A program made the translations under genes and the position numbers. Shown here one piece after another: positions 37,154-55,578 of a stretch of 64,000 nt of DNA. The notes under the pieces are model-generated. The model was not told where the DNA came from. It searched no databases and saw only the letters and a program-made list of their open reading frames with translations. Position 1 is the stretch's first letter, and each line of letters opens with the position of its first letter. Origin of the DNA: a bacterium (GTDB lineage: Bacteria > Acidobacteriota > Thermoanaerobaculia > Multivoradales > J023); the NCBI GenBank assembly GCA_024226315.1, contig JAAELT010000170.1:2415-66414 (forward strand). Direction: 5' to 3'.

Positions 37154-38356
37154 TCACCCTGCCGCGGCGACCAGAGGCGTGCTCAAGTCGACCGCTCCGG
37201 CCGAACCTCCCTCGCCGGAGGATCTCTCGAGCCGTAGGATCGCCTCGCGAGCTCCGATTCGATCGGTGCGGAGGTAGCGGGCGAGTTGCCCCTCGCTCAG
37301 CTCCCCGATCTGCCAAGCCTCCACCGCCAAGCCAACGTAACGGGGAGGTAGCGGATTCTCATCAGCCCGGGTTGGCGCGATACCCAGCAGTTGCTTTGCT
37401 CTCTGTACGCTGAACCTCTCCTGCCGCAGCCGTTCCCAGGTGCCGACGGGAATCAGCCGAAGCTCTTCCAAGCGGCGGATCATGGCCTCGACGGCGACGC
37501 AATAGAAGTGGGCGAGCCGGCAAAGGTCGCCGTGGGTGAGAGGCCGACCGCGTTCGAGCTCCAGGTACCGCCGCCGCAAGCCTGACGCCGGCATGAGAAA
37601 TGCCCTGGCGAAACCCTCGGCAAACCTTTCGGTCGCTGGCATGCGACGGTAGTGATCCTCGAGGGTGATCTCGGAGCGGTAACGGGAGGTCAGAAAATGC
37701 CCGTACTCGTGTCCGAGGCTGTGTCGCCTCCGCTCGGGGGGATGGTTGAGATTGACCGCCATGCAGCCGCCCAGGGTCTCGCTGAAGGCGAACATTCCGG
37801 CCACCCGCGACGGCAGCTCGATCTGGAACACCCGCAATCCGACGTCGCTCTCCAGCGTCTCCCGCAAGTTGAGCAGCGGGCCTTCGCCCAGCCCGAGTCG
37901 GTGCCGCTCGCTGTTCGCCACGTCCTCGGCGACGATCTCGGGGTCTACACCCTGGATCTCGTACTCTGGGGGATAGCGGCGGCGCATGGGCGCTTCGCAG
38001 ATCTCTTCGAGCCGGGAATAGTCTTCACAGAGATGCTGGAAGCTCTCGACGGGTGCCGACATCTCGGACTCACCGAGCGTCGACGGCAGGGACCTCCGGA
38101 GCAGCGCGCCGAAACCCTCCACGGGCGCGCCCCGCTGCAGCAGCTCCGAGACCCTCTGATCGTAGAGACCGGCAAGCTCGATCAGCTCAGCCGGCTTGAG
38201 CCGCCGGTCGCCTTTCTCGATGGCGACCAGGGTCGTCCGCGCAACTTTCAGGTGCTCCGCCACCTGCGTCTGCGTCAGGCCGCGCGACTCGCGGGCTTCT
38301 CGAAGACGGGCACCGAGAGCTCGTGGCTCGATCCCTTTCAACGGATTCTCGCTCAT
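37154..38356 (-). CDS. fused XRE-family HTH transcriptional regulator / ImmA-IrrE family zinc metallopeptidase (COG2856-like)
   Basis: The N-terminal HTH is LGARLREARESRGLTQTQVAEHLKVARTTLVAIEKG. The central zinc-binding motif is HSLGHEYGHFL (HEXXH). GC is slightly lower (about 62%) than the surroundings. Confidence 0.8.
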   Translation of the reverse strand: MSENPLKGIEPRALGARLREARESRGLTQTQVAEHLKVARTTLVAIEKGDRRLKPAELIELAGLYDQRVSELLQRGAPVEGFGALLRRSLPSTLGESEMSAPVESFQHLCEDYSRLEEICEAPMRRRYPPEYEIQGVDPEIVAEDVANSERHRLGLGEGPLLNLRETLESDVGLRVFQIELPSRVAGMFAFSETLGGCMAVNLNHPPERRRHSLGHEYGHFLTSRYRSEITLEDHYRRMPATERFAEGFARAFLMPASGLRRRYLELERGRPLTHGDLCRLAHFYCVAVEAMIRRLEELRLIPVGTWERLRQERFSVQRAKQLLGIAPTRADENPLPPRYVGLAVEAWQIGELSEGQLARYLRTDRIGAREAILRLERSSGEGGSAGAVDLSTPLVAAAG

Positions 38357-38475
38357 CTGTCCAATCCCCGAAGCCGCTGAGCTCTATGGATTCCCGCCCT
38401 CATGATCAGACTCTGACACAGAATCCGACAATGTCAAGTCTCTAATGGGCCAACGAAGAGCGAATGTCAGACATC

Positions 38476-38580
38476 TCAGCGCGTCCCCACGCTGACGGTG
38501 TCGACGACCGCGTTGGTGGCGGTGTCGACCACCGACACCGTGTCCGTTCCGTTGTTGGTGATGTAGGCGAAGGGCTGGGC
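38476..38580 (-). pseudogene. YVTN beta-propeller repeat fragment (gene remnant)
   Basis: The minus-strand translation ends in FAYITNNGTDTVSVVDTATNAVVDTVSVG, one copy of the YVTNxxsxtVSVID propeller repeat. It is preceded only by the noncoding-looking tandem repeats, which have low GC3. Confidence 0.25.
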
Positions 38581-38649
38581 GCCGGCGGTCCCGGCCGCGC
38601 AACCCTGCCTCCTCGGTGCTCTTCGAGGCTTTCGGGCAGAGTCCAGGAC

Positions 38650-38978
38650 AGCAAACGGGCGCTGGGAAACCGAAGAAGAAATCGGCCCTCGCCCCCACAG
38701 CGGTCGTCCGGGCTCTGGTGCGGTGCTCGGGCCTGGAATCGGCCACTGGGAAAACAATGGAAAATTCGACCCCTGCTTCCACAGCGGTCGTCCGGGACCT
38801 GGTGCGGTGCTCGGGCCTGGAATCGGCCACTGGGAAAGCCAGGGAAAAACCCGACCTTGCTTCCACAGTGGACGATCGGGGCTCCGGAGGGGCTCAGAAA
38901 CCCGAAATCGGCCACTGTGGAAGGGAGGGAAAAATCGTCCCTGGCTTTCACAGTCGTCATCCGGGGCACGTCTCGGTG
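38650..38978. repeat. tandem array of about 4 degenerate 83-85 bp repeats, each containing an internal inverted motif (TTCCACAG...CTGTGGAA)
   Basis: The unit 38767-38850 reads TTCCACAGCGGTCGTCCGGGACCTGGTGCGGTGCTCGGGCCTGGAATCGGCCACTGGGAAAGCCAGGGAAAAACCCGACCTTGC. Near-copies lie at 38684-38766 and 38851-38935, with partial copies at both ends. The array is in the intergenic space between the giant ATPase gene stop and the HTH-ImmA gene start. Confidence 0.6.
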
Positions 38979-39073
38979 GCACCAGCCGACCAACACGATC
39001 GCTGGCAGCAGATGTGGAAACAGCTACAGCAGAAGTCCGCAACTGAAGCCTCTGAGAAGATCGACCAGCAGCG

Positions 39074-42000
39074 CTAGCCTCCGCCCTCCTCCGCCGGCCT
39101 CGTCGCCAGGTCCGACATGTCTATCTTGCGCAGCGAGGCCACCAGGTCATTCAGCATGTCGAGGCTCTTCAAGGTGCGGTCGAGCTGCTGGGTGAGGGCA
39201 CGGTCGGCTTTGCCCTCTGCTTTCTTGAGCTTGCGGCCGATACCCTGCACCAGGGGCAGGAGGTTGTCGCCGACGATGCCGGTGAGGTGGGCGAGCACTT
39301 CGTGCACGCCGGAGCCGAGGGTCTGGACGACCTGGGTGCCGCGGGGTGACTCGGCGAGGCCGGTGAGGGTCTGGTCGAGCTTCTCGAGGTAGGGGGTGAG
39401 ATCGGACGTGGCCGGCTGAGGCGCGGGGGAGGGTTCCCCGGCAGGTGCCGCGACGGCGGCGGGGGACGGCTTCGCGGCCACCTCGCAGAGCTTGTCGAGG
39501 CGCTCCAGGAAGGCGTCGAGGCGCTCGCCGATCAATTTCGACGAAGCGTCGTCGCCGGCCGGCTTCGAGACGCTCTTCGCCGCCTTCGCCAGGGACGCGA
39601 GGTTCGATTGCAGCTTCTTCAAGTAAGGATCGAGGGTTGCCTTCAGCGCCGCGGCGGCGGCGTCCTCGCCGCCCGAGTCCTCGCTCGGCTGGCGGGCGAG
39701 CTCGCTCGCCGACTGGATGGACGAGCCGATGTCCTGCAGGCGGTCCGACACCAGGCCGAGCTGGCCGATCAGGCGGATGGCGGGATCGTCCTCGGCGCCG
39801 CCCATGGCCTGGACGCGGGCGAAGCCGCGCTTGATCTCTTCCCAGCGCTGCTGCTCCTCGCCTGAGAGCACGCCGCGCAGCTCGCGCAGCTTCAGGATGT
39901 TGTGCTCGGCGCCGGTGGTCAGAGTCTGGGATTCGCCGGCGTAGTGGTCGTCGATCAGCGCCTCGAGCTCCGCGTCGTTCATCACCGGCACAATTCTTTC
40001 GGCCAGCTTGTTCATGTTGCGATAGCTGCCTTGGAGCTGGAAGCGCGGCTCGGTGCGGTAGGCGTCGTCCTGGGAGGCGGAGTAGATGTATTGCTGGTTG
40101 ACCGCCAGCAAGACCTCCTGCACCCGCAGCAGCTTGCGCAGCACCGACAGCAGCTCCTCGAGCTCGATCGCCGAGTAGTCGTGGGAGAGCTGATCCGGCG
40201 GCATCTCCTCGCCCCGGGCCATGCGCACGAGCTTGAACAGGTCGTCGCCCTCGCGGGTGGTGAGCGGCGCCATCACCGGGTTCGAGGTCAGGGCGTTCTC
40301 GAGGTAGGAGAGGGCGAAGAGCTCGTCCTTGCCTTCGAGGATGTCGCCCAGGTTGTAGGTGTCGGCGCGGTTGGCCAGCATGTCGGGGATCTGAAACTTC
40401 TCCCCCGCCTCGGTGTAGGGGTTGCCCGCCATGCACACGGCGAAGCGCTTGCCGCGCAGGTCGTAGGTGCGCGTGCGGCCTCCCCAGATGCCCTCCATGC
40501 GGCGCTGGGCGTCGCACAGGGAGATGAACTTCTGTAGCAGCTCGGGGTGGGTGTGCTGGATGTCGTCCAGATACAGCAGAACGTTGTTGCCCATTTCGAG
40601 CGCGAAGCTGATCTTCTCGATCTCCTGGCGGGCGGTGGCGTTGGAGGCCTCCTGCGGGTCGATCGAGGTCACCGCGTGCCCCAGGGCCGGCCCGTTGATC
40701 TTGACGAACACCAGCCCGAGCCGGTTGGCGACGTACTCCATGAGCGTGGTCTTGCCGTAGCCCGGTGGCGAGATCAGCAGCAGTAGCCCCATCTGGTCGG
40801 TGCGCTTGTCTTCGCCGAGGGCGCCGAGCTGCTTGGCCAGGTTGTCGCCGATGATCGGCAGGTAGACGTCGCTGATCAGGCGGTTGCGTACGAAGCTGCT
40901 CATCACCTTGGGCTCGTACTCGGTGAGCCGCAGACGCGCCCGCTCGCGCTCGAGCATCTCGTGACGCAGCTCCTGGAACTTCCGGAAACCGGCGACCCGG
41001 CGCTGGCGAAAGGTGGCCAGGCGCGAGAGGAACTCATCGAGGCGCAGCCGCATCTTGCGGCCGGCGACGCGCGGGTGCTGGCCGAGCAGGCCCTCGACCT
41101 CGACCGAGGACAGGGCGCTCGACACGGTCCTTTCGAGACGACGCTCGGTGAGCAACAGTGCCACGGCTTCTTCCAGGCACGGCTCCAGCCGCTGGTGCTC
41201 GTCGCCGGCCTGGTCGAGGAACGCCGCCAACCAGGCGCGGGCCAGGCGGTAACGCTGAGTGAGGTCGTTCTCGAGCTCGCGCAGGTCGTCGTCGAGCTCG
41301 CGGCGGCTGCCTCCGCTTTCGAGCAGTGCCAGGAAGGCGTCGCGCAGCTCCACTGCCTCGGCGCTGGTCACGAAGCTGTGAGGTTTCTTGGCCAGCTCCT
41401 CGAACAAGTAGGCCCCCGCCCGCTGAGCGTCGTCGGGATGGATCTCCAGCTCGTTCTCGGCGAAGAAGGCGGCGATGGCGTCGGCCAGCTCCTGGTGGAA
41501 GCGGATAATCGCCGGGCTGTGGGCGAAGGCGCCTCGCAGGCGGCCGAGACTGCGCGCCCGCCGCTCCCAGAGCAACCGTGAATTGGGCTCCTGATGAAAG
41601 GCCCAGAACAGGCAGGCGAAGGCCCGCGGGCGCGGCGCGAAGCGCAGCAGGTCGGCGGTCGAGTAGAGCCCCACCAGTTGTTCGAGGATCAGCGCCGTGT
41701 CCTGGTCGTGCAGGCCACGCTCGTAGCCCTCGTCGTAGCGCTCGGCCGAGTAGCGGCGGACCAGATCCACCAGGCCGGCCTCGGCCACCACGCCCTCTTG
41801 CAAAGCCGAAAGCGTCAGACCGGCGGTCTCGACCTCAGCGTCGAACAGCATCGACGCCGCCAGGTACTCAGCTCTATAGACCTCTTCGGTCTCGGACACC
41901 AGGAGCTGGTTCCAGTAGTCCCGGGTGGTCTCGAACTCGCCGTCAGCGACGGTCTCGTAGAAGTCGGTGCCGGAGAGATGGAAGGCCATGGCGTCGCCGG

Positions 42001-44686
42001 ACGGCCCGGTGTTGCTGACGGGGACCATGGTCAGGTCGAACGGCTGGGTGTTGACGCTGAACCGGTGACGCCCGAGCTTGATGACGGTGGCGCCCTCCTC
42101 GAAGATGTCCTGGCGGTCGCGCAGGCCGCGGGCGGCGTCTTCGCGGGCGCTCTTGAGCCGGGAATCGAGCTCGTCGGCCTTGACGCTGTCCGAGAGCTCG
42201 CGCAGCTGGCCGGAGATGTCACGCACCTTGGCGACCATGGCGTCGCCGGCGAAGTAGGCGTTGAGCTCGTCGTTCGATGCCAGGCCCGATGCCCGCCGCA
42301 CGATGCCTTCGAGCACCCGCTCGGCCGCTTTCATCAGCCGGCCGACCCGGCGCTGGCGCTCGTCGAGCAGGGTCTGCTTCTTGGAAGTGATCGCCTCGTA
42401 GACGTCTTCGCGCTTGGTGGCGAGCTGCTCGGCGAACTCGTCGAACTCGCCGAAGCGGCTCTCCATGTCCTCGAGCTGCAGCAACAGCTTGGACAGCTGC
42501 TGGTCGCACTTCTCCGGCGTGTCGGCGAGTGCCATGGCGCCGCTGACACTCTGCGAGAAGAGCTTGAACTGGGCGCCGAACTCCGCCACCCCCTCGCTCG
42601 ACAGCAGCTCCTTGCGCCGCGCCTCGAGCAGCGCGCGGCCGCGGTTCAGCCCGCCGAGCACCTCGGAGATGCGCTCCAGGATCACCGTACGCACGGTGGC
42701 GTCGTCGATCTCGAGATCGCCCAGCACCTCGGTGAGCAGCTCGAGCGCGTCGCCGATGGCGGTGAAGCCTTCGGTCAGCGGCTTCGCGTCGGCGGTCTTC
42801 TCCACCTCGTCGATGCCGGCCACCAGCTCGCCGATCCGCCGATGGTAGGGCTCGAGCGCCTCCTCGGTGTCGAGGAAGCTCACCGTCTCGACGCTCAACT
42901 GGTCGAGCTGCTCGACCACCGCGGCCTCGAGCTCGTCGAGGCGTCCGCGGTCGACGTAGCGCTGCTCGCGCAGGCTGATCAGGTGGCCGCGCTGGGTGCG
43001 CAGCTTCGACAGGCCGGCGACGAAGTGGTCGGTGGTGGTCTTGGCCTCGGTGCGCACCTCCCGGAAGAGCTCCTCGAGCTGGGCTTCGCTCTCCGCGACC
43101 GCCTCGCGAGCGCGCTTGCGGATGGCCCGCACCTTCTCGAACTCGTCGACGATCAGCTCGACGGTGGCGCGCACCTCCTTCAGGCTCGGCCCCATGCCAC
43201 CGGCCTCGTCGCCATCGAGCCAGTAGTAGGCGTCGCCCATGCGCACGGCGGCCGCGATCAGGTCCTCGTAGATCTCGGCGCTCGGCTCCTGCTCCTCGAT
43301 CAGCCGGCCGATCGACAACGCGTCTGAGATGCCGCGCACCAGGTCGGCGTTGCCCACCTTCTCCAGGAAGCTGTCGCCGGTCGGCGCCTGGGCGGCGTAC
43401 TCGTCGCTGGTGAACGGGGTCTGCCAGATCTGGATGGCGTGCACCCGGGTGGGCTCGCCTGAGAGCGCGCGGAAGATCGCCAGCTTGCCGTCCTCGAACA
43501 GGCTGAAGCCGTTGCAGTGGATCGGGCTCGCCACTTCCTTGCGGATCATGTTGTAGGACAGCAGGATGGTGCGCCCCGCGACGCGCTCGTGGAAGACGTA
43601 GAGCACGTCCTCGCCGTTGGGCGAGCGCACCACGCGCATGAACTCCATCTCCGCGACGTCGCCCTCGAAAGACTTGGTCTCGCCACTCTGCAGGTAGTAG
43701 CCGCCGGGGAAGATCAGGCCGTGGTCCTCGGGCAGCAGCAGGCAAGCCTGGCCGATGGCGTCGAGGCGCGTGACCTTGTGGTTGCGGGTGTTGAACACCA
43801 GGTAGCGCCAGGTGGTCTCGTTGTAGGGCAGGATCTTCAGCAAGATCAGCGGCCCGACCCTGGCGTAGTGGATCTCGCCGTCGTCGAGGCTCTGGTCCGG
43901 CTCGTCCACCGGCTCGCGGTAGATGCCCAGGCCATCCTCGGTGTTGTCCTCGACCTTGACGGTGAGATCGCCGCCCACGGTCTCGACGAATACTTCGTCG
44001 AGCACCGAGACGTGGGGGTGGCGCCCGAGAACGAAGTCCTCGCGGGAGGTCGCGGTCCACTCGAAATCGTGCGACGGCGGGAAGACGTGATCGCGCTCGC
44101 CACGGTTGTCGATGTAGGTCGCCACGCCGTCCGGGGCGATCGCCCAGCGGAAGACCTTGATGTCGCCTACCGTCCTGCCGGTCTGGAAGACCGCCAGCAG
44201 CTTGTCGTCGATTCGGCGCAGCTGCAGCAGGCGGGTTTCCTTGTAGTACTTGTAGAGCTCCTTGAAGTCGCGGACGAACTCTTCGTCGCTCAGGAAGTTG
44301 TCCGGCGAGTCTTCGGGTATCGGCTCGAAGGAGAAACCGGAGTTGGTCTCAGTGAACAAGTGGAGGCTGAGCACGTCCTCCACGCGGGTCTCGGTCTTGA
44401 GGCCGATGAAGACGTTGTAGCCGAACAGCAGCTTCTCGCCCGGCTCTCCATCAGAGTGGCGGCCGACGTCGCGGATGTCACGCGGTACGCAGTTGTTGTC
44501 GGTGCGAATGCGCTGGTTGCCGAGCACCGTGGTCTCGGTACCGCCGAACACCTCCAGCCGCCGGGTGTTGAGCCCGTTCGCCGCTTCGGACAGGCCCCGG
44601 GCGTGCTGCTGGAGACGGTCGCGGAGCAGCTCGTAGGTACCGCGTTCGAGGGTGGCCTCGGCGGTCGATTCCGGCTCGTCGCTCAT
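39074..44686 (-). CDS. giant (1870 aa) multidomain protein: beta-rich N-terminal region, long helical/coiled-coil middle, MoxR/AAA_5-like ATPase near the C-terminus
   Basis: This is a continuous ORF with good GC3 bias. The Walker A LLLLISPPGYGKTTLMEY lies at about aa 1300, Walker B/sensor motifs are VLLYLDDIQHTHPELL, and an AAA_5-like AVCMAGNPYTEAGEKFQIPDMLANRADTY is present. The start codon is 6 nt after the flotillin stop. Confidence 0.8.
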   Translation of the reverse strand: MSDEPESTAEATLERGTYELLRDRLQQHARGLSEAANGLNTRRLEVFGGTETTVLGNQRIRTDNNCVPRDIRDVGRHSDGEPGEKLLFGYNVFIGLKTETRVEDVLSLHLFTETNSGFSFEPIPEDSPDNFLSDEEFVRDFKELYKYYKETRLLQLRRIDDKLLAVFQTGRTVGDIKVFRWAIAPDGVATYIDNRGERDHVFPPSHDFEWTATSREDFVLGRHPHVSVLDEVFVETVGGDLTVKVEDNTEDGLGIYREPVDEPDQSLDDGEIHYARVGPLILLKILPYNETTWRYLVFNTRNHKVTRLDAIGQACLLLPEDHGLIFPGGYYLQSGETKSFEGDVAEMEFMRVVRSPNGEDVLYVFHERVAGRTILLSYNMIRKEVASPIHCNGFSLFEDGKLAIFRALSGEPTRVHAIQIWQTPFTSDEYAAQAPTGDSFLEKVGNADLVRGISDALSIGRLIEEQEPSAEIYEDLIAAAVRMGDAYYWLDGDEAGGMGPSLKEVRATVELIVDEFEKVRAIRKRAREAVAESEAQLEELFREVRTEAKTTTDHFVAGLSKLRTQRGHLISLREQRYVDRGRLDELEAAVVEQLDQLSVETVSFLDTEEALEPYHRRIGELVAGIDEVEKTADAKPLTEGFTAIGDALELLTEVLGDLEIDDATVRTVILERISEVLGGLNRGRALLEARRKELLSSEGVAEFGAQFKLFSQSVSGAMALADTPEKCDQQLSKLLLQLEDMESRFGEFDEFAEQLATKREDVYEAITSKKQTLLDERQRRVGRLMKAAERVLEGIVRRASGLASNDELNAYFAGDAMVAKVRDISGQLRELSDSVKADELDSRLKSAREDAARGLRDRQDIFEEGATVIKLGRHRFSVNTQPFDLTMVPVSNTGPSGDAMAFHLSGTDFYETVADGEFETTRDYWNQLLVSETEEVYRAEYLAASMLFDAEVETAGLTLSALQEGVVAEAGLVDLVRRYSAERYDEGYERGLHDQDTALILEQLVGLYSTADLLRFAPRPRAFACLFWAFHQEPNSRLLWERRARSLGRLRGAFAHSPAIIRFHQELADAIAAFFAENELEIHPDDAQRAGAYLFEELAKKPHSFVTSAEAVELRDAFLALLESGGSRRELDDDLRELENDLTQRYRLARAWLAAFLDQAGDEHQRLEPCLEEAVALLLTERRLERTVSSALSSVEVEGLLGQHPRVAGRKMRLRLDEFLSRLATFRQRRVAGFRKFQELRHEMLERERARLRLTEYEPKVMSSFVRNRLISDVYLPIIGDNLAKQLGALGEDKRTDQMGLLLLISPPGYGKTTLMEYVANRLGLVFVKINGPALGHAVTSIDPQEASNATARQEIEKISFALEMGNNVLLYLDDIQHTHPELLQKFISLCDAQRRMEGIWGGRTRTYDLRGKRFAVCMAGNPYTEAGEKFQIPDMLANRADTYNLGDILEGKDELFALSYLENALTSNPVMAPLTTREGDDLFKLVRMARGEEMPPDQLSHDYSAIELEELLSVLRKLLRVQEVLLAVNQQYIYSASQDDAYRTEPRFQLQGSYRNMNKLAERIVPVMNDAELEALIDDHYAGESQTLTTGAEHNILKLRELRGVLSGEEQQRWEEIKRGFARVQAMGGAEDDPAIRLIGQLGLVSDRLQDIGSSIQSASELARQPSEDSGGEDAAAAALKATLDPYLKKLQSNLASLAKAAKSVSKPAGDDASSKLIGERLDAFLERLDKLCEVAAKPSPAAVAAPAGEPSPAPQPATSDLTPYLEKLDQTLTGLAESPRGTQVVQTLGSGVHEVLAHLTGIVGDNLLPLVQGIGRKLKKAEGKADRALTQQLDRTLKSLDMLNDLVASLRKIDMSDLATRPAEEGGG

Positions 44687-44692
44687 CGCCGG

Positions 44693-46681
44693 TTAGCTGT
44701 CGTCGCTGTCGGTGGTGTCGAGTCCCGCCTCCTCGGCGGCTTCGAGCAACTGGCGCAGCTTCGACGAGCGGTCGCCCGGTGCCTGCTGAAGCAGCCGCCC
44801 GAACAGGCCCGCCAGGCTCAGGTTGCGGACGTCATCCGAGGACACGGCGGGGCGCGAGAGCACGTCCTTCAGGTCGGCAGCGAAACTCTTGTCGCCTTCC
44901 AGGTAGTCCTTGAGCAGCTTCTGGCTGGTCTCGCTCTTGTCGACGAAGGCGTCGACCGCCTTGCCCATGCCCACCGCCTGCACCAGGCGGTCGAAGAACA
45001 CCGTGTCGCCACCGACGATGTCGATGTCGGCCTGCTTGAGCCCCTCGGCGATCACCCCGGCCTGGGCCTCGGCGATGTGGCGCCGGGTGTCGATGCCCGC
45101 CAGCTCGATCTCCTTCTGTGCCTGGAGGCGCAGCCGGTACTCCTCGTGGTCGCGGCTCGAGGCGTCCAGTGCCTTCATCGACTCGGCCTTCTCGGCCAGA
45201 CCCGAGGCCTCGCCGAGCAGCTTCTCGCGGATCGCCTCACCTTCGGCCAGTCCCTTCTTGCGCAGCACCTCCGCCTCGGCGGTGCCCATCTTCTCGGTCG
45301 CCGTGGCGTCGGCCTCCTTGACCCGCACGTTGGCCATGCCGAGCTTCTCGACGGCGTCGGCGTCGCGCTCCTTGACCTGGACCTCGGCCAGACCCGCAGC
45401 CGCCTGCTCCGCCTTGATGCCGTCGGCCATGCGGATCTTCGCCTGGGCTCGCTTGTCGGTCGCCGCCAGATGGGCCTCGGCCAGAGTCAGCTCTTCACGG
45501 CCCTTGTGCTTCGCGGCCGTCTCGGCGGCCTCCGCGGCCTTGATGTCTTTGACCAGCAATTCCTGGGCCTCGGCCTCGGCGGTGATGATTGTCGCTTCCT
45601 TGGTGCGTTTGGCGTCCTCGACGATGCGCACTCTCTTGATCGCTTCTTCCTCCTCGGCGACGGTCTTCTCCACCGCCACGCGCTCGCGGATCACGACGGC
45701 GATCTCGCGCTTCTCGTGCTCGACCTCTTTGTCCTTGGCGATGGTCTGGAGTTGGGTCTCGCGATCGCGGCTGATCACCTCGATCAGGCGATCCTTCTCC
45801 ACCCGCTCGTTCTCCACCGCCACCACGCGCTCGCGGTTCTTCTGTGCCACCTCGACCTGGCGGTGGCGGTTCTCGTCCTGGACGCCGATCTCCTCTTCGG
45901 CCTTGATGCGGGCGCTCTCGGCCTTGAGCTTCTCCTCGGCCTGCACCTTGAGGGTCTCGGCCTGCTCGCGGGCCCTGACCGTGGCGATCTCGCGCAATTG
46001 CTTGGACTCGGCGTCGGCCTGCTGGCGCTCGAGCTCGTAGATCGCCTCGGCCGCCTCGACGTCCTGCTTCTTGATCAGCTTCTTCTCGTTGTTCTGGAAC
46101 TCGTTGGTCTTGACGTGCTCGATGACGGTCAGGTCGGTGATCTTGCGGATGCCCTGGGCGTCGAGGATGTTGAGCTCGTCGAGCGAGGAGACCGGCGTCT
46201 GCTCCAGGTAGTCGATGGCGCAATCCTCGAGCGAGTAGCCGTTCAGATCGGTGCCGATGACCTCGATGATGCGGTCGCGCAGGTCCTCGCGCTGGGTGTA
46301 CAGATCGACGAAGTCGAGCTGCTTGCCGGCGGTCTTGAGCGCTTCTGAGAACTTGGCGCTGAACAGCTCCTCGAGCGTCTTCTGGTCCGATGCCCGGGTG
46401 CAACCGATCGCCTGGGCCACCTTGATGACGTCTTCCTCGGTCTTGTTGACCCGCACGAAGAAGGTGATCTTGATGTCGGCACGGATGTTGTCGCGGCAGA
46501 TCAAGCCATCGGCACCGCTGCGATCGATCTCGATGGTCTTGACCGTCATGTCCATCAGCTCGGCCTTGTGGATCACCGGGATCACCAGACCGCCGGTGAA
46601 GCTCACCTGCACCTTGCCGGACGCCACGTTGCTGACGATGAGGGCCTTGCCCTGTTCGACCTTGACGATTCCTAAAGCCAT
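44693..46681 (-). CDS. flotillin (SPFH/band-7 family, YqiK/FloT-like)
   Basis: The N-terminal SPFH domain is MALGIVKVEQGKALIVSNV...IEIDRSGADGLICRDNIRADIKITFFVRV. It is followed by a long EA-rich coiled-coil (flotillin) region. The 662-aa length is typical. Confidence 0.85.
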   Translation of the reverse strand: MALGIVKVEQGKALIVSNVASGKVQVSFTGGLVIPVIHKAELMDMTVKTIEIDRSGADGLICRDNIRADIKITFFVRVNKTEEDVIKVAQAIGCTRASDQKTLEELFSAKFSEALKTAGKQLDFVDLYTQREDLRDRIIEVIGTDLNGYSLEDCAIDYLEQTPVSSLDELNILDAQGIRKITDLTVIEHVKTNEFQNNEKKLIKKQDVEAAEAIYELERQQADAESKQLREIATVRAREQAETLKVQAEEKLKAESARIKAEEEIGVQDENRHRQVEVAQKNRERVVAVENERVEKDRLIEVISRDRETQLQTIAKDKEVEHEKREIAVVIRERVAVEKTVAEEEEAIKRVRIVEDAKRTKEATIITAEAEAQELLVKDIKAAEAAETAAKHKGREELTLAEAHLAATDKRAQAKIRMADGIKAEQAAAGLAEVQVKERDADAVEKLGMANVRVKEADATATEKMGTAEAEVLRKKGLAEGEAIREKLLGEASGLAEKAESMKALDASSRDHEEYRLRLQAQKEIELAGIDTRRHIAEAQAGVIAEGLKQADIDIVGGDTVFFDRLVQAVGMGKAVDAFVDKSETSQKLLKDYLEGDKSFAADLKDVLSRPAVSSDDVRNLSLAGLFGRLLQQAPGDRSSKLRQLLEAAEEAGLDTTDSDDS

Positions 46682-46740
46682 TGACGCCTCCTCACTCGAA
46701 AGTCCGTCCGCGTTCTAGCGGGCGGGTTGCATAGTTCTCA

Positions 46741-47517
46741 TCACGTGTTCGAATCTGTTTCCTCGGCAAGCTCCGCCAGACCTTCGTCCACTTGCGTGAC
46801 GTGGAACACCTCGTTCGCCGCGTCGTAGTGGCAGACCAGGGCCTTGGAGCCGCGCTTCAGCTCGTTCGCCTCGGTGCAGCGGGCCTGGATCAGGATTGCC
46901 GCGCCCTTGTCCACGACCTCCGCCTGGCCGAACCTCTCGTCGATCCGCAGGGTGGTGACCGTGCAGATCCGCCCCACCAGATCCTGGCGCCCGGTCACCG
47001 GCGCCAGCCGGAAGACCTGTTTGAGCGGTCTGAGCGCCACGGCGGTCGTCGCCAGCGACAGCACCACGGCACAGGCGCCGACCAGGGCGACGGCCAAGGC
47101 GCCCTGCACGATGCCTGCGGCGAGTTTCACCCCGCCCATGGAGAAGGCCCAGGAGAAGAAGACCAGCACGCTGCCGATGACGGTGAACGGCACGCCGGCC
47201 AGCCCCAGGCAACCCTGGTGCTCGCCGATCGCTTCGCCGGCGCCCTCCCCAGCACCGTCTGCCAGGGACACGTCCGCCAGGCCGTCGGCCGCGCCCGACA
47301 GGGCTTCGGCCGCACCCTCCGCCAGGCCCTCGGCCGCGCCTTCGACACCGGCCACCGCCCCCTCGGCCAGGGCGTCCGCGGATTCGAACAGCCCGTCCAG
47401 GATCCCCAGATCCATGACTCCGAGAATCACCGTCAGCCAGTAGAAGATCACCAGGATCAGCAGGACACTGAAGACCGTGGTCGGCATGGTGAATGCCGCT
47501 TCGAAGAAACCGCTCAT
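46741..47517 (-). CDS. NfeD/YqiJ-like membrane protein (flotillin partner)
   Basis: It has N-terminal TM helices, an Ala/Gly/Glu-rich linker and a C-terminal OB-fold-like segment (GRICTVTTLRIDERFGQAEV...ALVCHYDAANEVFHV). Its position immediately upstream of the flotillin gene matches the yqiJ-yqiK arrangement. Confidence 0.65.
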   Translation of the reverse strand: MSGFFEAAFTMPTTVFSVLLILVIFYWLTVILGVMDLGILDGLFESADALAEGAVAGVEGAAEGLAEGAAEALSGAADGLADVSLADGAGEGAGEAIGEHQGCLGLAGVPFTVIGSVLVFFSWAFSMGGVKLAAGIVQGALAVALVGACAVVLSLATTAVALRPLKQVFRLAPVTGRQDLVGRICTVTTLRIDERFGQAEVVDKGAAILIQARCTEANELKRGSKALVCHYDAANEVFHVTQVDEGLAELAEETDSNT

Positions 47518-47612
47518 GACACAACCTCGGCGCGGGCGAACGACTGAGACATGTCTCGAAGTACGACCCGGCGCGAGGCGTTATTCATCAGGCTCTCCTC
47601 GTCTTTGCCCGC

Positions 47613-49928
47613 TCAGTAACCCCAGGACGGCCACAAGGCCTCGGTGCCGGTGATCTTGCCGAGGCCTTCGGTGTACAGCCGGACCGTCTCGACCAGGCCG
47701 GGCGAGATGAGATGCCGCCCATGCGTACCTACCCGGAACAGGTGCTTCCAGGTCTCGCGGGTACCGAGTTGAAGCTTGCGGCCGCGAACCTCGCGCGACA
47801 GGCGCGTCAGGCGCAGCTGCAATGCGATCGTGCCGCAGGTGGTGAAGTAGGAGCCCGCCGGCAGGGACTCGAGCCAGGCCACGAGCTCCTCGCGGCTGGA
47901 GCACGCTTGCACCCGCTCGCGCAATCCAGGTCCCGGTCCCTTGGCGGCGCTGCCGATCGCCAGCGGCCGCAGGTCGACGAAGCCGTTGTTGGCAATCACC
48001 CAATCGCGCGCCACCTCGAAGGGCAGACCGTGCTCTTCCGCCAGGCTCCGCCACGCGCGGTGTACGTCGCCCGTGGCGGCGATCCCTGTTTCCAATGGTG
48101 CCACATAGGGTCCGACCAGCATCCGGTCGTCACCGCCCACCGGGTCGCGATAGATGATCGGGATGCCGAGCGAGGTGACGGTCTGGAGGTAGCGGCCGAT
48201 GCGGGTGGCGAGGCGCGCCAGGAACCGCTCGCGGCCCGGCTGCCGCCGGCCCTGATGACGCGGGTCGTATCCCAGGAAACGCCCCGCCGACTCCATCGAG
48301 TCGATCTCGCAGAGCTGGCCGAAGAGCGACGCCAGCCGGACGGCGTCCAGGCCCTCGAGATCCTCGAAGCACGGGATGCGGGTATGGCTCCAGAAGAAGT
48401 CGTCGAGGTCGGAGAGCCCCTGGACCAGATCGTCCTCGGAGATGTCCGCGAACTTCTCGCCCAGCTCCAGCAGGCGCAGCACCAGCAGCAGCAGCCCCAA
48501 CTCGTGCATGCGCGCCTGGTGGGTGGCCGATCCCAGCGCCTGGTAGGCCTGCACGGCGAACACGCCGTGATGGGCGCGGATCAACTGCGGGTAGCTGTCG
48601 AGCAGCTTGAGGGCGAAATGCGAGTTCTCGGTCTGGGTGTAGTAGGAGAACTTGTCCTGAAACCAGTCTCGGCGGCGTTCGGGGCCGAACACGGCGTGGC
48701 GGACCAGGACCATCGCCAGCTCCTCGGGAATCGCCACCTTCATGACGTGGTAGAGGGCGACGCAGTTGCCGACCGAGAAGATGCCGTTTTCCCCCGAACG
48801 GATCGCGGCGTCGACGATCAGCTCCTTGCCGCCGCCGAACTGGAGGGGCTCGCCGGCGAGCGGCTCGCGGGCGAGGGACTCGCCATCTCCTTCCGAAGCG
48901 GCCAGGGGCAGACTGTGGCTCGGATAGAGCAGGATGTGCGCGCTCTCGAGATCGCCTGCAGGGACCGGCGGCGACTCCGCGGTCGCGAAGCGCGCCGCGA
49001 GTGCCCTGTTCACGGCCCGATCGAGCGGCACCCGCTCGCGCAGCTCGACGGCGTCGATACCGATAGCCGCGGCGGCCTCGAGCACGTCGAAACCGTGGTC
49101 GAGATAGAGCTGAGTGAGCTCCTCGGCGAAGTATTTCTTGTCGACCAGCTTGTTGCCGAGCGCGCTGTGGGCGAACCCGAGACGGATCTCGGGCTTACCG
49201 CCGTCGACCCTGTACATACCGCCGACGGCGGTGGTGTGAGCAATCACCACGTGGCGAGCGTGACGCTGTTGGATGACAGCCAGCCCGCCGATGAAAGTCC
49301 TCAGATAGCTCTTCTTGACCCGCTGCTGCGCGGCATGGTCAATACCGCGTTCGGTGAGCAGCCGATCGATGGCACCGAGAGTGTAGGTGGCGACCGAGGG
49401 CAGCGGGATGGCGACCAGCACCGCGTGCAGGAGATCGGTGTCGAGGTCCTCCACGAAGCGCTGGAACGGACACTCCTGGGCCGCGAAATACTCGCCAAGC
49501 GCTCTCTCCAGGTCGGCTTTGGACCCCGACTCGACTCGTTCCGAATCGAGGCGCTGCTCGAGGTCGCGCGGGACCTGGAGCTGCAGCAGGGCGAACTTGA
49601 GGTCGATCCGGCCGTCGAGCCGGTAGTGGCGCCGGGGCTCGATCTTCTCGATCTCGACCTCGTCACCCAGGGCAAGGTAGAGGCGGCGGGCGAACTGCGA
49701 GACGTCCTTGTCCGCCATGCCGGTGGCGTAGATTTCGCCACGCAGCGGCGGCTGCCGAAGGGTCTTCGACATCAGGATCATGCGGCACAGCTCGAGCACC
49801 GAGGCGCCGCCGACCGCGCCCGTGCCGCCGAACACGACGAAGCGGATCGGCTCCTTGCCGCCGCCCGGCAGCAGGCGGTTGGCGAGCAGATGCTCCAGGG
49901 ATTCGAATTCGTGGTAGAGGGTCCGCAT
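47613..49928 (-). CDS. hypothetical 771-aa protein with N-terminal Rossmann-type GxTGxxG motif
   Basis: It begins IRFVVFGGTGAVGGASVLEL, a dinucleotide-binding-like motif. I recognise no other domain. It has good GC3 bias and is co-directional with the NfeD/flotillin/giant-ATPase genes, 95 bp upstream of NfeD. Confidence 0.55.
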   Translation of the reverse strand: MRTLYHEFESLEHLLANRLLPGGGKEPIRFVVFGGTGAVGGASVLELCRMILMSKTLRQPPLRGEIYATGMADKDVSQFARRLYLALGDEVEIEKIEPRRHYRLDGRIDLKFALLQLQVPRDLEQRLDSERVESGSKADLERALGEYFAAQECPFQRFVEDLDTDLLHAVLVAIPLPSVATYTLGAIDRLLTERGIDHAAQQRVKKSYLRTFIGGLAVIQQRHARHVVIAHTTAVGGMYRVDGGKPEIRLGFAHSALGNKLVDKKYFAEELTQLYLDHGFDVLEAAAAIGIDAVELRERVPLDRAVNRALAARFATAESPPVPAGDLESAHILLYPSHSLPLAASEGDGESLAREPLAGEPLQFGGGKELIVDAAIRSGENGIFSVGNCVALYHVMKVAIPEELAMVLVRHAVFGPERRRDWFQDKFSYYTQTENSHFALKLLDSYPQLIRAHHGVFAVQAYQALGSATHQARMHELGLLLLVLRLLELGEKFADISEDDLVQGLSDLDDFFWSHTRIPCFEDLEGLDAVRLASLFGQLCEIDSMESAGRFLGYDPRHQGRRQPGRERFLARLATRIGRYLQTVTSLGIPIIYRDPVGGDDRMLVGPYVAPLETGIAATGDVHRAWRSLAEEHGLPFEVARDWVIANNGFVDLRPLAIGSAAKGPGPGLRERVQACSSREELVAWLESLPAGSYFTTCGTIALQLRLTRLSREVRGRKLQLGTRETWKHLFRVGTHGRHLISPGLVETVRLYTEGLGKITGTEALWPSWGY

Positions 49929-50073
49929 GATGATGGCGGGGGTCGTGATTCAAGGGTAGAGCATCTTCGAGGGCGGAACATCATAGTGTATCTCCAGACC
50001 GGGTGTCCGGCTCGTTACAATCTGTGACAGCCCAGACAAAATTGGGAGACGACGGCCCGCTAGGGTCCCCGGC

Positions 50074-52005
50074 ATGAAGAACCTCATTGCAAGAGCGGCT
50101 CTCACGGCCGCATGTCTGTTTTTCCCCATGCTCGCCGCCGCCCACGGCGGTGGCGAGCACGGCGACGGCAAGATCGTCGTCAATTCCGTGCATCCCGGTA
50201 GTCCGGCCGAGGCGGCCGGACTCGAGGCCGACGACCTGTTCGTGCGACTCGATGGGCAGGAGATCGCAACCAACGAGGATCTGAGGCGGGTCATGGCGGC
50301 CCACCGGCCCGGCGACACGGTGCCCCTCACCGTCGAGCGGAAGGGCGAAACGATCGAGCTGGCCCTGACGTTCGGGGAGCGTCCCGAAGGAGGCGTCTCG
50401 ATCGGCGTGTCGCTCGCCATCATGAGCGCTAACGTCCCCGACCTGGCTCCGGGCGAGGGGTTGACCCGGGACGAGTGTCTCACGTGGGTAGACGAGACCT
50501 ACCAGATCGATCCCATGATTCGTGACCTGGGACTCGAGCTGTCAGACGATGCCGGAACGCTCCACGCCTGCCTGAAGGACAACGTGCAGGCAATGCCCTC
50601 GCCGATGCCGACCGGGTGGTGCGACAATGCATTCAAGATCCACTGCTCGGGTCTCGACCTGCTCACCGAGATAGGCGAGACGCTGGTGGAGCGGTGCGGA
50701 AAGCTACTCGGCCAGCCGCTCGGCTCGTGCGCCGCCCAGAAGGTGTTCGACAGCTACTCCCGGGACGGCGAGGCGAGCGACGAGGCAGCCTGTCGCGCCG
50801 CCCGTGATTCCTGCTCCGAGGCCACCTGGACGCAGTTCGGCGGCCCCGGGCAGGACTTCAGGGCCCCGGCCCGCGACCTGGCCGAGAGCTGGCCCGAGGC
50901 CGGGCCCGCGAAGCTGTGGAGCCGCGACCTGGGCGACGGGTACTCGGCGATCCTCTACCGGGACGGCCGTCTCTATACGATGCACCGCGCCGATGACGGC
51001 ACCGGTGAGCGCGAGTCGGTGATCTGTCTCGACGCCGGGAGCGGCGAGACGGTCTGGGAAGAGCGTTACGAGGCGAGCTACGAGGGGCTCCGAGGATACG
51101 GGATCGGACCGCGCTCGACGCCGGTGATCGCCGGTGACCTCCTCTTCGCCGTCGGCGTGACCGGCAAGATGCACGCGCTCGAAGCCAAAGGCGGGACGGT
51201 TCTCTGGAGTCGGGAACTGTGGGGCGAGGAATTCGGGGGCAACCGCCCGGGGCACGGCTACTCCTCGAGCCCGGTGGCCTGGGAAGACACAGTAATCGTG
51301 TCCGTCGGCGGCAAGAACGCCAGCCTGGTGGCCTTCGAACAGAAGACCGGCAAGGTACGGTGGCGAGCTCACTCCTTCAAGAACAGCTACTCCTCCCCGC
51401 GCATCGCACGGATCGCCGGCCAGCCACAGCTGCTGGCGTTCATGGGCGACGAGCTGATCGGCGTCGACCCGGATACCGGCGCGCTGCTGTGGCGCTACCC
51501 GCACAGCAACCAGTGGCACCAGAACATCGCCATGCCGCTGGCCAATGGCGGGGTCGACGGAGACATGATCTTCATCTCCTCACCCCAGGCCGGCGCCAAA
51601 GGGCTACGGTTGTCCCGCGACGACGAGACGATCCGAGTCGAGGAAGCGTGGCATACGCGCCGGATCCAGCTGTACCACGGTTCGGCGGTGTCGAGCGGCG
51701 ATTGGGTCTACGGCTCCACCGGGGTCACGGCGCCGGCTTTCATGGCCGCCGTCAACGTCCGGACCGGTGAGATCGGCTGGCGCCAGCGCGGCTTTGCCAA
51801 GGCCAATGTCGTTCTGGCAGACGGCAAGCTCGTCATCCTCGACGAGGAGGGCGTCCTCTACCTCGCCACCGCGACGCCCGAAGCGCTGGTCGTGCACGCC
51901 AGGACCCAACTGCTGGACCGGGTGGCCTGGACGGCGCCGACGATCGTCGGCCAGACCCTGTACGTGCGGGACCGAAACCAGATCCTGGCCGTCGACCTCG
52001 GGTAA
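50074..52005 (+). CDS. secreted PDZ domain / PQQ-like beta-propeller repeat protein
   Basis: It has a signal peptide (MKNLIARAALTAACLFFPMLAAA), a PDZ-like region (VVNSVHPGSPAEAAGLEADDLFVRLDGQEIAT) and C-terminal PQQ/BamB-like repeats (LWSRDLGDGYSA, TVLWSRELWGEEF, ALLWRYPHSNQW). Confidence 0.75.
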   Translation: MKNLIARAALTAACLFFPMLAAAHGGGEHGDGKIVVNSVHPGSPAEAAGLEADDLFVRLDGQEIATNEDLRRVMAAHRPGDTVPLTVERKGETIELALTFGERPEGGVSIGVSLAIMSANVPDLAPGEGLTRDECLTWVDETYQIDPMIRDLGLELSDDAGTLHACLKDNVQAMPSPMPTGWCDNAFKIHCSGLDLLTEIGETLVERCGKLLGQPLGSCAAQKVFDSYSRDGEASDEAACRAARDSCSEATWTQFGGPGQDFRAPARDLAESWPEAGPAKLWSRDLGDGYSAILYRDGRLYTMHRADDGTGERESVICLDAGSGETVWEERYEASYEGLRGYGIGPRSTPVIAGDLLFAVGVTGKMHALEAKGGTVLWSRELWGEEFGGNRPGHGYSSSPVAWEDTVIVSVGGKNASLVAFEQKTGKVRWRAHSFKNSYSSPRIARIAGQPQLLAFMGDELIGVDPDTGALLWRYPHSNQWHQNIAMPLANGGVDGDMIFISSPQAGAKGLRLSRDDETIRVEEAWHTRRIQLYHGSAVSSGDWVYGSTGVTAPAFMAAVNVRTGEIGWRQRGFAKANVVLADGKLVILDEEGVLYLATATPEALVVHARTQLLDRVAWTAPTIVGQTLYVRDRNQILAVDLG

Positions 52006-54106: not shown

Positions 54107-55357
54107 CTAAGCCATCACGGTCGGCACCAGCCTGCCGGCGTCCTCCGCCGTCAGGCTGTCGCGCGCCGCCTCGGCGGGCGCGTGCTCCGCCAGGTGGGCC
54201 CGCACCGCGGGTGCGATGCAGGCGGCGATGCGGCGCGCGGTGCGCTCGGCGTCCGCGCGCGGTCTGACCACACGGGTCGTACGATCGATCTCGCAGAGCA
54301 GGTCCTTGCGCACCTCGATACCGAGGCAGCTCAGGCGCTCGCTGCCGAAACGGAAGCCGCGCAGCAGGTCGTCGCGGCAAGCTTCCGCGAATCGCGCGAT
54401 CTCGCCGTAGGCGCGCCGGGCCTCGGCGAACAGCTCCCGTGAATCGCGCGGCGCCGAGCGGTAGCGGTGCAGGTAGCCGCGCAGGCGCTCGGCGGCGGGC
54501 GAGCGCCGGATGACGTCGAGCAGCAGTTGCCAGACGCGCTGATACCCGGGTAGGTCGCGGGTGTGCGGGAACGCCCGCGTGAACTCGCGCCGCAGGTAGC
54601 CGAAGTACAGCCACACCTGGGCACGGATCTCGACCGAGCCCTCGGGCATGATGTAGGGGTAGTTCAGCGCCGTGTGCCAGCCGTCGCTCTCGAGCGCGGC
54701 CAGCGCCCGGTAGGTCAGGAGCTGCTGGCAAGTGGCCTCACACAGCTCCGGCGGAAAGAGCGGATCGAAGATGTAGGGTGGCATCGTCGACTGTAGCTGA
54801 TACTCGAGAGAACGCGTCACCAGGCTGACCTCCGGCCGCCGTGTGCCGCTCTGGTTGTGCGGGTCGTAACTGTGGATCGCGATCGTGACGCGCGGCCTCG
54901 AGAAATATTGTGTGAAGGCCAACGCGGCGCCGTCGTAGTAGCGGGCCAGGATCTCGTGGCGGGCGTCCTCGTCGAACAGATGCTCGAGCGGCGGGAACAG
55001 CGCGTGCCGGCGCAGGTACTCCTCGCCCACCGACGACGTCCCCGGGAACCGCCCGAAGTCCATCACCACGCGGGCCAGGTTGAGCCGCAGGTAGCTGCCG
55101 GTCCCGATCTCACGCGCCAGGTGGCGGGCCACCAGGTTGGCACCCCAATCCCGTTCGCGCAGATGGGCGGTCTCGATCTCGGGGCGCGCCAGCACCTCCT
55201 CGGTGCGCTCACCGAACAGATGCCGTGGGAACTTGTCGCCATCGTGGATGGTGAACACCAGAGCACCGTCCCCGGCGGTGGCGGGCCGGCCGTTGCCGCC
55301 GACCGGCACGTTTTCCATCAGCTCCAGGTGTTCGGTGATTTCAGGCTTGGGATGCAC
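54107..55357 (-). CDS. hypothetical protein, N-formylglutamate amidohydrolase (FGase)-like family
   Basis: ALVFTIHDGDKFP and VTIAIHSYDP resemble FGase motifs, from memory only. I chose the GTG start at 55355-55357, preceded by a GAGGAG SD, over the upstream ATG at 55441. Confidence 0.4.
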   Translation of the reverse strand: MHPKPEITEHLELMENVPVGGNGRPATAGDGALVFTIHDGDKFPRHLFGERTEEVLARPEIETAHLRERDWGANLVARHLAREIGTGSYLRLNLARVVMDFGRFPGTSSVGEEYLRRHALFPPLEHLFDEDARHEILARYYDGAALAFTQYFSRPRVTIAIHSYDPHNQSGTRRPEVSLVTRSLEYQLQSTMPPYIFDPLFPPELCEATCQQLLTYRALAALESDGWHTALNYPYIMPEGSVEIRAQVWLYFGYLRREFTRAFPHTRDLPGYQRVWQLLLDVIRRSPAAERLRGYLHRYRSAPRDSRELFAEARRAYGEIARFAEACRDDLLRGFRFGSERLSCLGIEVRKDLLCEIDRTTRVVRPRADAERTARRIAACIAPAVRAHLAEHAPAEAARDSLTAEDAGRLVPTVMA

Positions 55358-55578
55358 TCGAATCTCCTCACGCTCGGGCGACAGCTGCACGACGATCGGG
55401 CCGCGACACACACTCCGTGCCGCTGACCGCGCGGGCCGCACCCTTCTCTCGGTCTGGAGGCACCGCCGGCCGCCGCTGCGCTACGCCGGCAAGGCGTGGC
55501 GGGAGCTCGGTCGCGGGCACCTCGGGAGTCGAGATTCTACCCGCAGTCGTCCACCGAAGGAAGACCGCGACCACGGCC

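Follow-up and report, generated by a model that had tools for sequence, protein, structure and literature searches.

A giant DUF3686-family AAA+ ATPase genetically linked to a flotillin-type SPFH protein and a YqiJ-like membrane protein in an acidobacterial genome

Gene content of the locus

We analysed a stretch of 64,000 nucleotides (nt; hereafter the window) of contig JAAELT010000170.1 in GenBank assembly GCA_024226315.1, from a bacterium of the Acidobacteriota (Thermoanaerobaculia; Multivoradales; J023), with attention to four minus-strand genes that encode, in reading order, an SDR-fold-like protein of 771 amino acids (aa), a YqiJ/YuaF (NfeD2)-like membrane protein, a flotillin of the SPFH superfamily and a giant AAA+ ATPase (Table 1). 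The last three, hereafter the trio, form a conserved module that recurs across phyla, and the 771-aa gene is a frequent neighbour of it in one acidobacterial clade.

A first-pass annotation, made from the letters of the window, had placed four minus-strand open reading frames (ORFs) here, and all four were found at exactly its coordinates. Because DNA of high GC content yields many long shadow ORFs (the window has a GC content of ~0.67), GC was examined by codon position (GC1, GC2 and GC3 for first, second and third positions). All four minus-strand frames had a GC3 of 0.87-0.92 together with a low GC2. The mirror ORF on the opposite strand at 47712-50027 (+), also of 771 aa, had a GC1 of 0.86 and a GC3 of 0.71, the pattern of a GC-rich shadow, which supports the minus-strand reading; the other ORFs that overlap the four genes also showed a shifted pattern. 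The proposed starts match the N-termini of homologues, which number hundreds to thousands for each protein, and all four ORFs are thus confirmed as real genes.

The flotillin stop codon and the ATG of the giant gene are separated by 6 nt (TAA CCGGCG ATG), a gap that the first-pass annotation had read correctly, and the remaining gaps are 59 nt between the YqiJ-like and flotillin genes and 95 nt between the 771-aa and YqiJ-like genes. A promoter and terminator scan of 38000-50200 gave counts not above those of shuffled sequences and did not inform the transcript structure, and Rfam and tRNA scans of the window returned no matches.

Table 1. Coordinates of the four genes and of the segments of the giant ATPase in the window
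Feature	Position	Strand	Evidence
Giant AAA+ ATPase, 1870 aa	39074-44686	-	ORF list
SPFH/flotillin-like protein, YqiK type, 662 aa	44693-46681	-	ORF list, Band_7, BLASTP
YqiJ/YuaF (NfeD2)-like membrane protein, 258 aa	46741-47517	-	ORF list, hhalign, hydrophobic segments
SDR-fold-like protein, 771 aa	47613-49928	-	ORF list, conserved motifs
DUF3686 region of the giant, predicted beta-propeller, aa 32-488	43223-44593	-	Pfam, AlphaFold model, Foldseek
Long helical/coiled-coil region of the giant, aa 446-860, includes DUF7902	42107-43351	-	AlphaFold model, Pfam
AAA+ module of the giant, about aa 1293-1470	40277-40810	-	Pfam, PDB matches, invariant columns

Domain architecture of the giant ATPase

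The first-pass annotation had recognised an AAA+ domain in the giant protein and had been unable, from sequence alone, to place the protein in a characterised family. The Pfam search bore out the former, with an AAA domain (PF00004) at aa 1302-1425 (31.9 bits, above the gathering score), and overturned the latter, with matches to DUF3686 (E 4e-211) and DUF7902 (aa 609-693, E 9e-29) by which the protein is assigned to the Pfam DUF3686 + DUF7902 + AAA family. Its homologues amount to more than 7000 database matches, named "DNA repair ATPase" or "AAA family ATPase", and DUF3686 itself is represented by 744 proteins at 50% clustering; the domain begins within the first ~50 residues in most of the 150 representatives listed, and in nearly all of the full-length ones (about 1550-2036 aa). 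A literature search for DUF3686 found no paper, and the search of PADLOC-DB 2.0 gave as its sole match IetA (E 0.004, over 29 residues of the P-loop).

From its N-terminus the protein comprises a helix, a beta-propeller, a long coiled coil, a small beta domain, a helical domain, a single AAA+ module and a tail, the last ~250 residues being poorly conserved and rich in Ala and Pro; it has neither a protease domain nor a transmembrane (TM) helix. An AlphaFold model of aa 1-1200 (pLDDT 78) was all-beta over aa 53-422 and consisted of very long helices, of 20-58 residues, over aa 446-860. Foldseek matched the beta region with modest scores to WD40 and other beta-propellers (RBBP4, Ski8, the LRRK2 WD40 domain, prolyl oligopeptidase and TolB), and DUF3686 is therefore likely to be a beta-propeller that probably binds clients or partners. 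A protocoatomer-like arrangement of beta-propeller and alpha-solenoid, suggested by matches to IFT-A and clathrin, was not adopted in view of TM-scores of ~0.1 and on the helices being a long coiled coil.

The AAA+ module is the best-conserved segment of the giant, with ~80% identity over 79 homologues, and its best matches in the PDB sequence search were p97/Cdc48/NSF (E 4e-7), in keeping with its prediction as a module of the classical type (p97/NSF/Vps4/FtsH clade). In an alignment of the giant with 13 homologues the Walker A motif GYGKTT (1309-1314), N1422 and R1440 were invariant, the last two of which are putatively assigned as sensor 1 and Arg finger. The Walker B motif, LLYLDD at aa 1370-1375 (40562-40579), follows a family-wide pattern hhhhDD in which both Asp residues are invariant, in contrast to the usual DE, and the pore-loop-1 position reads GHAV, which has no aromatic residue and resembles p97 D1.

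The YqiJ-like membrane protein and the flotillin

The 258-aa protein has three hydrophobic segments (aa 4-42, 101-130 and 128-165) and a soluble C-terminal domain. Pfam models of NfeD and YqiJ matched neither this protein nor 23 of its homologues, and searches of NCBIfam, PADLOC and the PDB sequences with the protein returned nothing; a profile of its family aligned by hhalign to Escherichia coli YqiJ with 94% probability (E 1e-7, 129 columns). The alignment to the NfeD domain of Bacillus subtilis YuaF (2k14) was weak (E 0.37), and so is the support for an OB fold. With its gene directly upstream of the flotillin gene, the protein is placed by profile similarity in the NfeD2/YqiJ-YuaF family, in agreement with the first-pass annotation, which had called it an NfeD/YqiJ-like membrane protein.

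The identification of the 662-aa protein as a flotillin also held. A full-length Pfam scan returned no family, and Band_7/SPFH (PF01145) was recovered at aa 7-152 (E 3e-13) only in a scan restricted to the N-terminal 221 aa; searches of NCBIfam, PADLOC and the PDB sequences gave no matches. BLASTP aligned the protein with E. coli YqiK (E 4e-27, 27% identity over 395 residues, aa 12-390). The SPFH domain is followed by a long charged coiled coil, and the YqiK alignment extends to aa 390 through its E/A/K/R-rich part.

The membrane anchor that the first-pass annotation would have assumed for the flotillin was not found, as there is no hydrophobic segment anywhere in the window protein. In all giant-linked flotillins of other phyla an N-terminal hydrophobic helix of ~25 residues precedes the motif R-x-Y-R-K-V-E-Q-G, and this helix is also kept in the flotillin of another metagenome-assembled genome of the Acidobacteriota (L012). 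The window flotillin begins MALGIVKVEQG, directly preceded by a GAGGAGG ribosome-binding site, with an in-frame stop 12 codons upstream. The same TM-less start, MA(L/F)GI(V/L)KVEQG, occurs in five further assemblies of the clade (L089-L093, with the variant MINKIGIVKVEQG in L093). Since these independent assemblies share the start and the ribosome-binding site, we rejected a frameshift or assembly error as its origin, and the sequences indicate that the flotillin of this acidobacterial clade has lost its N-terminal TM helix. The anchor-less flotillin is a natural variant that could help to separate the anchoring role of YqiJ from that of the flotillin TM helix.

Conservation of the trio

To place the locus in context, 80 loci of the giant gene were taken from a species-level genome collection, with representatives in Acidobacteriota, Myxococcota, many Actinomycetota and Gammaproteobacteria. 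Linkage was counted over the 73 loci in which the sequence upstream of the giant gene reached 3.2 kb or more, the other seven being cut by contig ends. A flotillin gene was present in all 73 and stood immediately upstream on the same strand in 72 of them; a YqiJ-like gene was likewise found in 72 loci, so that the co-occurrence of the giant with flotillin and NfeD homologues, which the first-pass annotation had proposed to look for, is evident well beyond the window. The SPFH and giant genes were mostly no more than 150 nt apart, and in many loci they overlapped by 4 nt. It is on this near-invariant linkage across phyla that we describe the YqiJ-like protein, flotillin and giant as a conserved module; all-against-all clustering of every ORF in the giant loci revealed no other family that was common across phyla. 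The flotillins linked to the giant are 47-68% identical to the window protein across phyla, compared with 27% for the stand-alone YqiK, which suggests an SPFH subfamily co-evolving with the ATPase.

Mobile elements carry the module rarely. The DUF3686 domain was found on 13 of 72,556 plasmid records, which add trios in Deinococcus and on pQBR103 and the giant gene only in Hymenobacter, and on none of 50,697 phage records.

Additional genes accompany the module in some lineages. Fifteen gammaproteobacterial loci carry at least one of DUF2170, PspA, rhomboid and PLD; in most of them DUF2170 and PspA lie upstream, and several have rhomboid and/or PLD genes, mostly downstream. Most trio loci lack PspA, and the SPFH protein is the invariant partner of the giant. 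None of the DUF2170, PspA, rhomboid and PLD representatives had a tblastn match in the 64-kb window.

The 771-aa neighbour

The 771-aa protein matched nothing in Pfam, NCBIfam, PADLOC or the PDB sequences. Across its family a GGTGAVGG motif is invariant, as is the Tyr of a Y393-x3-K397 motif whose Lys is present in at least 90% of sequences, and the protein also has large insertions and a C-terminal extension of about 350 aa without a recognised fold. It is a predicted SDR-fold, dehydrogenase-like enzyme of a family found mainly in this acidobacterial clade: the named ones among its 418 matches are nearly all from Acidobacteriota (Thermoanaerobaculia, Holophagales), apart from a few distant ones in Bacteroidota.

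We inspected nine loci of the family. In five, the window and L089-L092, whose 771-aa proteins are 63-83% identical, the gene precedes the trio while the outer flanks differ; homologues away from the trio were found at L086 (62%), L087 (61%), L084 (53%) and L081 (33%). L087 and L093 belong to one genome, in which about 50-70 kb separate the 771-aa homologue from the trio. Of the four-gene cluster that the first-pass annotation had taken as a unit, the trio is thus linked across phyla, whereas the 771-aa gene was found in none of the 80 other trio-bearing loci. Because of this absence, and because it stands by the trio in only five of the nine family loci, the 771-aa gene is a frequent clade-specific neighbour and not part of the core of the module. 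It would be an independent gene, established as a stable neighbour within a single acidobacterial clade.

In L086, L087 and L092 genes for a MoxR-like AAA protein and VWA_CoxE, followed by a gene of ~430 aa, lie upstream of the 771-aa homologue. The ~430-aa gene is unannotated in L086 and L092 and corresponds to FGase and a GHMP kinase in L087; FGase also precedes the homologue in L090, and the window has an FGase gene at 54107-55441 (-). The MoxR-like AAA, VWA_CoxE and FGase proteins may be functional partners of the 771-aa protein.

Relation to described operons and systems

The first-pass annotation had suggested a machine of unknown function, but the operon type is already described and the system had thus been recognised before. 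By comparative genomics, Ravi et al. 2024 (mSystems, PMC11237479) identified an operon of CesT/Tir (DUF2170/YjfI)-PspA, flotillin, a 3TM YqiJ/YuaF protein and an AAA+ protein, sometimes with a PLD hydrolase, as a partner of the phage-shock (PspA; hereafter PSP) membrane-stress system. The same authors note that an abbreviated form of the operon, lacking PspA, is widespread and may act together with PspA from another locus (PMC11237479). The full operon has PspA, DUF2170 and at times PLD, whereas the window has none of these in 64 kb and, as in others of its clade, a predicted SDR-fold gene upstream; as the DUF2170-PspA dyad is absent, only the abbreviated form fits, and the window trio is very probably this PspA-less form of the PSP-associated flotillin/YqiJ/AAA+ operon. 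A further difference is that the published flotillin architecture lists a TM segment, which the window flotillin does not have.

Plasmid pQBR103 of Pseudomonas fluorescens SBW25 (L094; NC_009444.1, 85-98 kb) carries one same-strand run in the order PspA, rhomboid, DUF2491, DUF350, DUF1190, glutathionylspermidine-synthase-like, YqiJ-like, SPFH and "DNA repair ATPase". This run unites the polyamine-type and flotillin-type PspA neighbourhoods, which are separate in Ravi et al.

An experimental counterpart is the bacABCDEF operon ("biofilm-associated cluster", PA3732-PA3727) of Pseudomonas aeruginosa, in which reverse-transcription PCR (RT-PCR) links all junctions and a sigma-54 promoter is predicted (PMC10948618). 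A bacA mutant accumulates the downstream BAC proteins, PA3731 (BacB) had been found in an earlier study to accumulate in sessile cells, and the system influences biofilm, rhamnolipids and virulence, the phenotypes being those of bacA and bacB (PMC10948618). Phage infection raises the expression of PA3728-PA3732 (PMC12041424), and the entry for PA3728 reads "ATPase".

The published PA14 RT-PCR primers were mapped onto loci of the Pseudomonas family. The bacD-side primers mapped in the SPFH gene with 0-2 mismatches, and the bacE-side primer encodes PKNNCI, which is the giant-family motif (T/P)xNNCI (TENNCIAR at about aa 70); the length of the amplicon was also as expected. From these data we infer, with good support, that bacD and bacE are orthologues of the window SPFH and giant genes, and by synteny together with the primer mapping bacC, bacD and bacE would correspond to the YqiJ-like, SPFH and giant genes. 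The designation of BacE as a DUF3686 protein comes from our analysis and is not stated in the bac papers. The bac operon starts with DUF2170 (BacA) and PspA (BacB) and has a sixth gene, in which it differs from the window trio. An eLife 2022 paper on Arc was set aside as a source on PA3729, which it mentions only as immunoprecipitation background.

E. coli yqiJ-yqiK and B. subtilis yuaF-floT are the SPFH2/NfeD2 pairs of Hinderhofer et al. 2009 (PMC2636767), and share with the window the position of an NfeD2-type gene directly upstream of a flotillin-type SPFH gene; however, no ATPase gene follows E. coli yqiK, and the N-terminal TM region of YqiK is missing from the window flotillin. Pairings of SPFH proteins with AAA+ proteins are seen in mitochondria, where prohibitin is paired with the m-AAA protease and SLP2, PARL and YME1L form the "SPY" complex, and the rhomboid gene in several of the gammaproteobacterial operons parallels PARL in the latter. 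In HflK/C-FtsH an SPFH scaffold works with an AAA+ machine of the classical clade at the membrane (PMC13220708). By analogy, the trio would repeat this recurring scaffold-AAA+ pairing, although the giant has neither a protease domain nor a TM helix and carries a beta-propeller and a coiled coil in their place. In the genetic coupling of an AAA+ ATPase to a membrane-remodelling polymer the trio resembles Vps4-ESCRT-III, PspA being a member of the ESCRT-III superfamily (PMC11237479); it differs in that the giant has no MIT domain and its invariant partner is an SPFH protein and not PspA.

Proposed function

The first-pass annotation had suggested a machine associated with membrane microdomains, and a membrane-associated machine is a fair reading given the linkage of the trio across phyla, its short junctions and the co-transcription of the P. 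aeruginosa orthologues. Whether this machine acts as a remodeller under membrane stress is, in our judgement, close to an even call. In such a model the three-TM YqiJ-like protein would anchor and nucleate an oligomeric SPFH assembly on the cytoplasmic side of the inner membrane, and in this clade it would be the sole anchor because the flotillin has lost its TM helix. The SPFH assembly would recruit the giant ATPase, which would oligomerise through its classical AAA+ module, while the beta-propeller and the coiled-coil arm might engage the SPFH polymer (and the ESCRT-III-like PspA where present) or clients held in the microdomain. During envelope stress the giant would then spend ATP to remodel, disassemble or extract SPFH or PspA polymers or such clients, the SPFH assembly being either its substrate or its scaffold.

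Several observations weigh against this model. No PspA, DUF2170, rhomboid or PLD gene occurs in the 64 kb, so the link to the PSP response comes solely through homology to other genomes. The Walker B motif with DD instead of DE and the pore loop 1 without an aromatic residue mean that processive threading is not assured. As the window flotillin has no TM helix, association with the membrane would depend on its presumed interaction with YqiJ. Finally, the P. aeruginosa phenotypes concern bacA and bacB and not the ATPase (PMC10948618).

A narrower proposal, possible but doubtful, is that the giant is a dedicated ATP-driven assembly or disassembly factor of flotillin-type SPFH cages, on which it would dock by way of its beta-propeller and coiled-coil arm, and that the variant of this clade is peripheral, anchor-less and tethered by YqiJ. 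If so, such a remodeller of SPFH cages would be a bacterial counterpart of Vps4 for ESCRT-III or of NSF for SNAREs. The trio bears on the construction and turnover of flotillin/SPFH assemblies in bacteria and on their coupling to membrane repair, and an ATPase that almost never occurs without its own flotillin makes energy-dependent control of SPFH microdomains directly testable.

Alternative explanations

The linkage data could also reflect a true four-gene system in this clade, with the SDR-fold enzyme as an accessory, for example in the modification of lipids or small molecules, for a flotillin that has lost its anchor. Such a role would be consistent with the block of 771-aa, YqiJ-like, SPFH and giant genes being kept in the window and in L089-L092 while the outer flanks differ, and with the flotillins of all these block loci being TM-less. 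The flotillin is also TM-less, however, in the genome of the same clade where the 771-aa homologue lies far from the trio, and another homologue, 62% identical, has no trio within 10 kb. Intergenic gaps measure 73-355 nt, unlike the tight SPFH-giant junction, the 771-aa gene is missing from all 80 other trio loci, and elsewhere its recurrent partners are the upstream MoxR-like AAA, VWA_CoxE and FGase genes; we therefore regard a four-gene system as unlikely. The trio might instead be an anti-phage defence of the abortive-infection type, in which flotillin and YqiJ sense membrane perturbation and the giant, with PLD in some loci, is the effector. Defence systems often contain large multidomain ATPases and PLD nucleases, the phage induction of PA3728-PA3732 would fit, and so would the patchy spread over phyla, the trios on a few megaplasmids and a TIR-STAND-WD40 gene ~30 kb away in the window. 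Phage induction, however, also defines the Psp membrane-stress response, none of the four proteins had a significant PADLOC match, and DUF3686 is absent from the phage records and rare on plasmids. The genomic context is chromosomal; the acidobacterial neighbours are mostly housekeeping genes, with some toxin-antitoxin-like genes flanking L091 and L093 and no defence-island pattern, and no validated SPFH-AAA defence system emerged from a literature search, all of which makes a defence function quite improbable.

That the giant is a DNA repair ATPase beside the flotillin by chance is the least probable of these explanations, and we rejected it because it rests on a database name: the Pfam text reads "ATPase involved in DNA repair" and NCBI uses "DNA repair ATPase", to which a weak RuvB match of the P-loop can be added. 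The RuvB matches are confined to the P-loop and, at about 21 bits, miss the cut-offs of 27 and 282-299; neither a nuclease nor a DNA-binding domain was found, and a repair role would sit poorly with the near-invariant operon linkage to two membrane-associated proteins and to PspA. The name most probably stems from similarity of the coiled coil to SMC-type proteins; the label is misleading, and nothing found here supports it. Compared with these alternatives, a remodeller acting under membrane stress remains our preferred reading of the trio.

Other features of the window

An 84-nt tandem repeat occupies intergenic DNA at 38680-38990, directly downstream of the giant stop codon. TRF reported 2.1 copies with an 89% match at 38695-38868, and a third, degenerate copy lies near 38926-38956; a 36-nt core occurs in two exact copies and nowhere else in the window. 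The repeat region had no Rfam match, and 38384-39073 contains no codon-biased ORF. The next gene downstream on the same strand, at 37154-38356 (-), encodes a 400-aa fusion of HTH_XRE and Peptidase_M78 (ImmA/IrrE-like); it is separated from the giant by ~700 nt of non-coding repeat DNA and is not kept beside the trio in other genomes.

Farther away, the genes at 23815-26586 (+) and 20039-23269 (+) encode a Ser/Thr kinase-TPR fusion, which lies in a stretch of lower GC (0.61), and, nearby, a UvrD-like helicase, which carries an N-terminal extension of ~490 aa without a Pfam match. The gene at 7790-10705 (+), ~30 kb from the cluster, encodes a 971-aa TIR-nSTAND1-WD40 protein, a STAND NTPase of the immune/conflict type.

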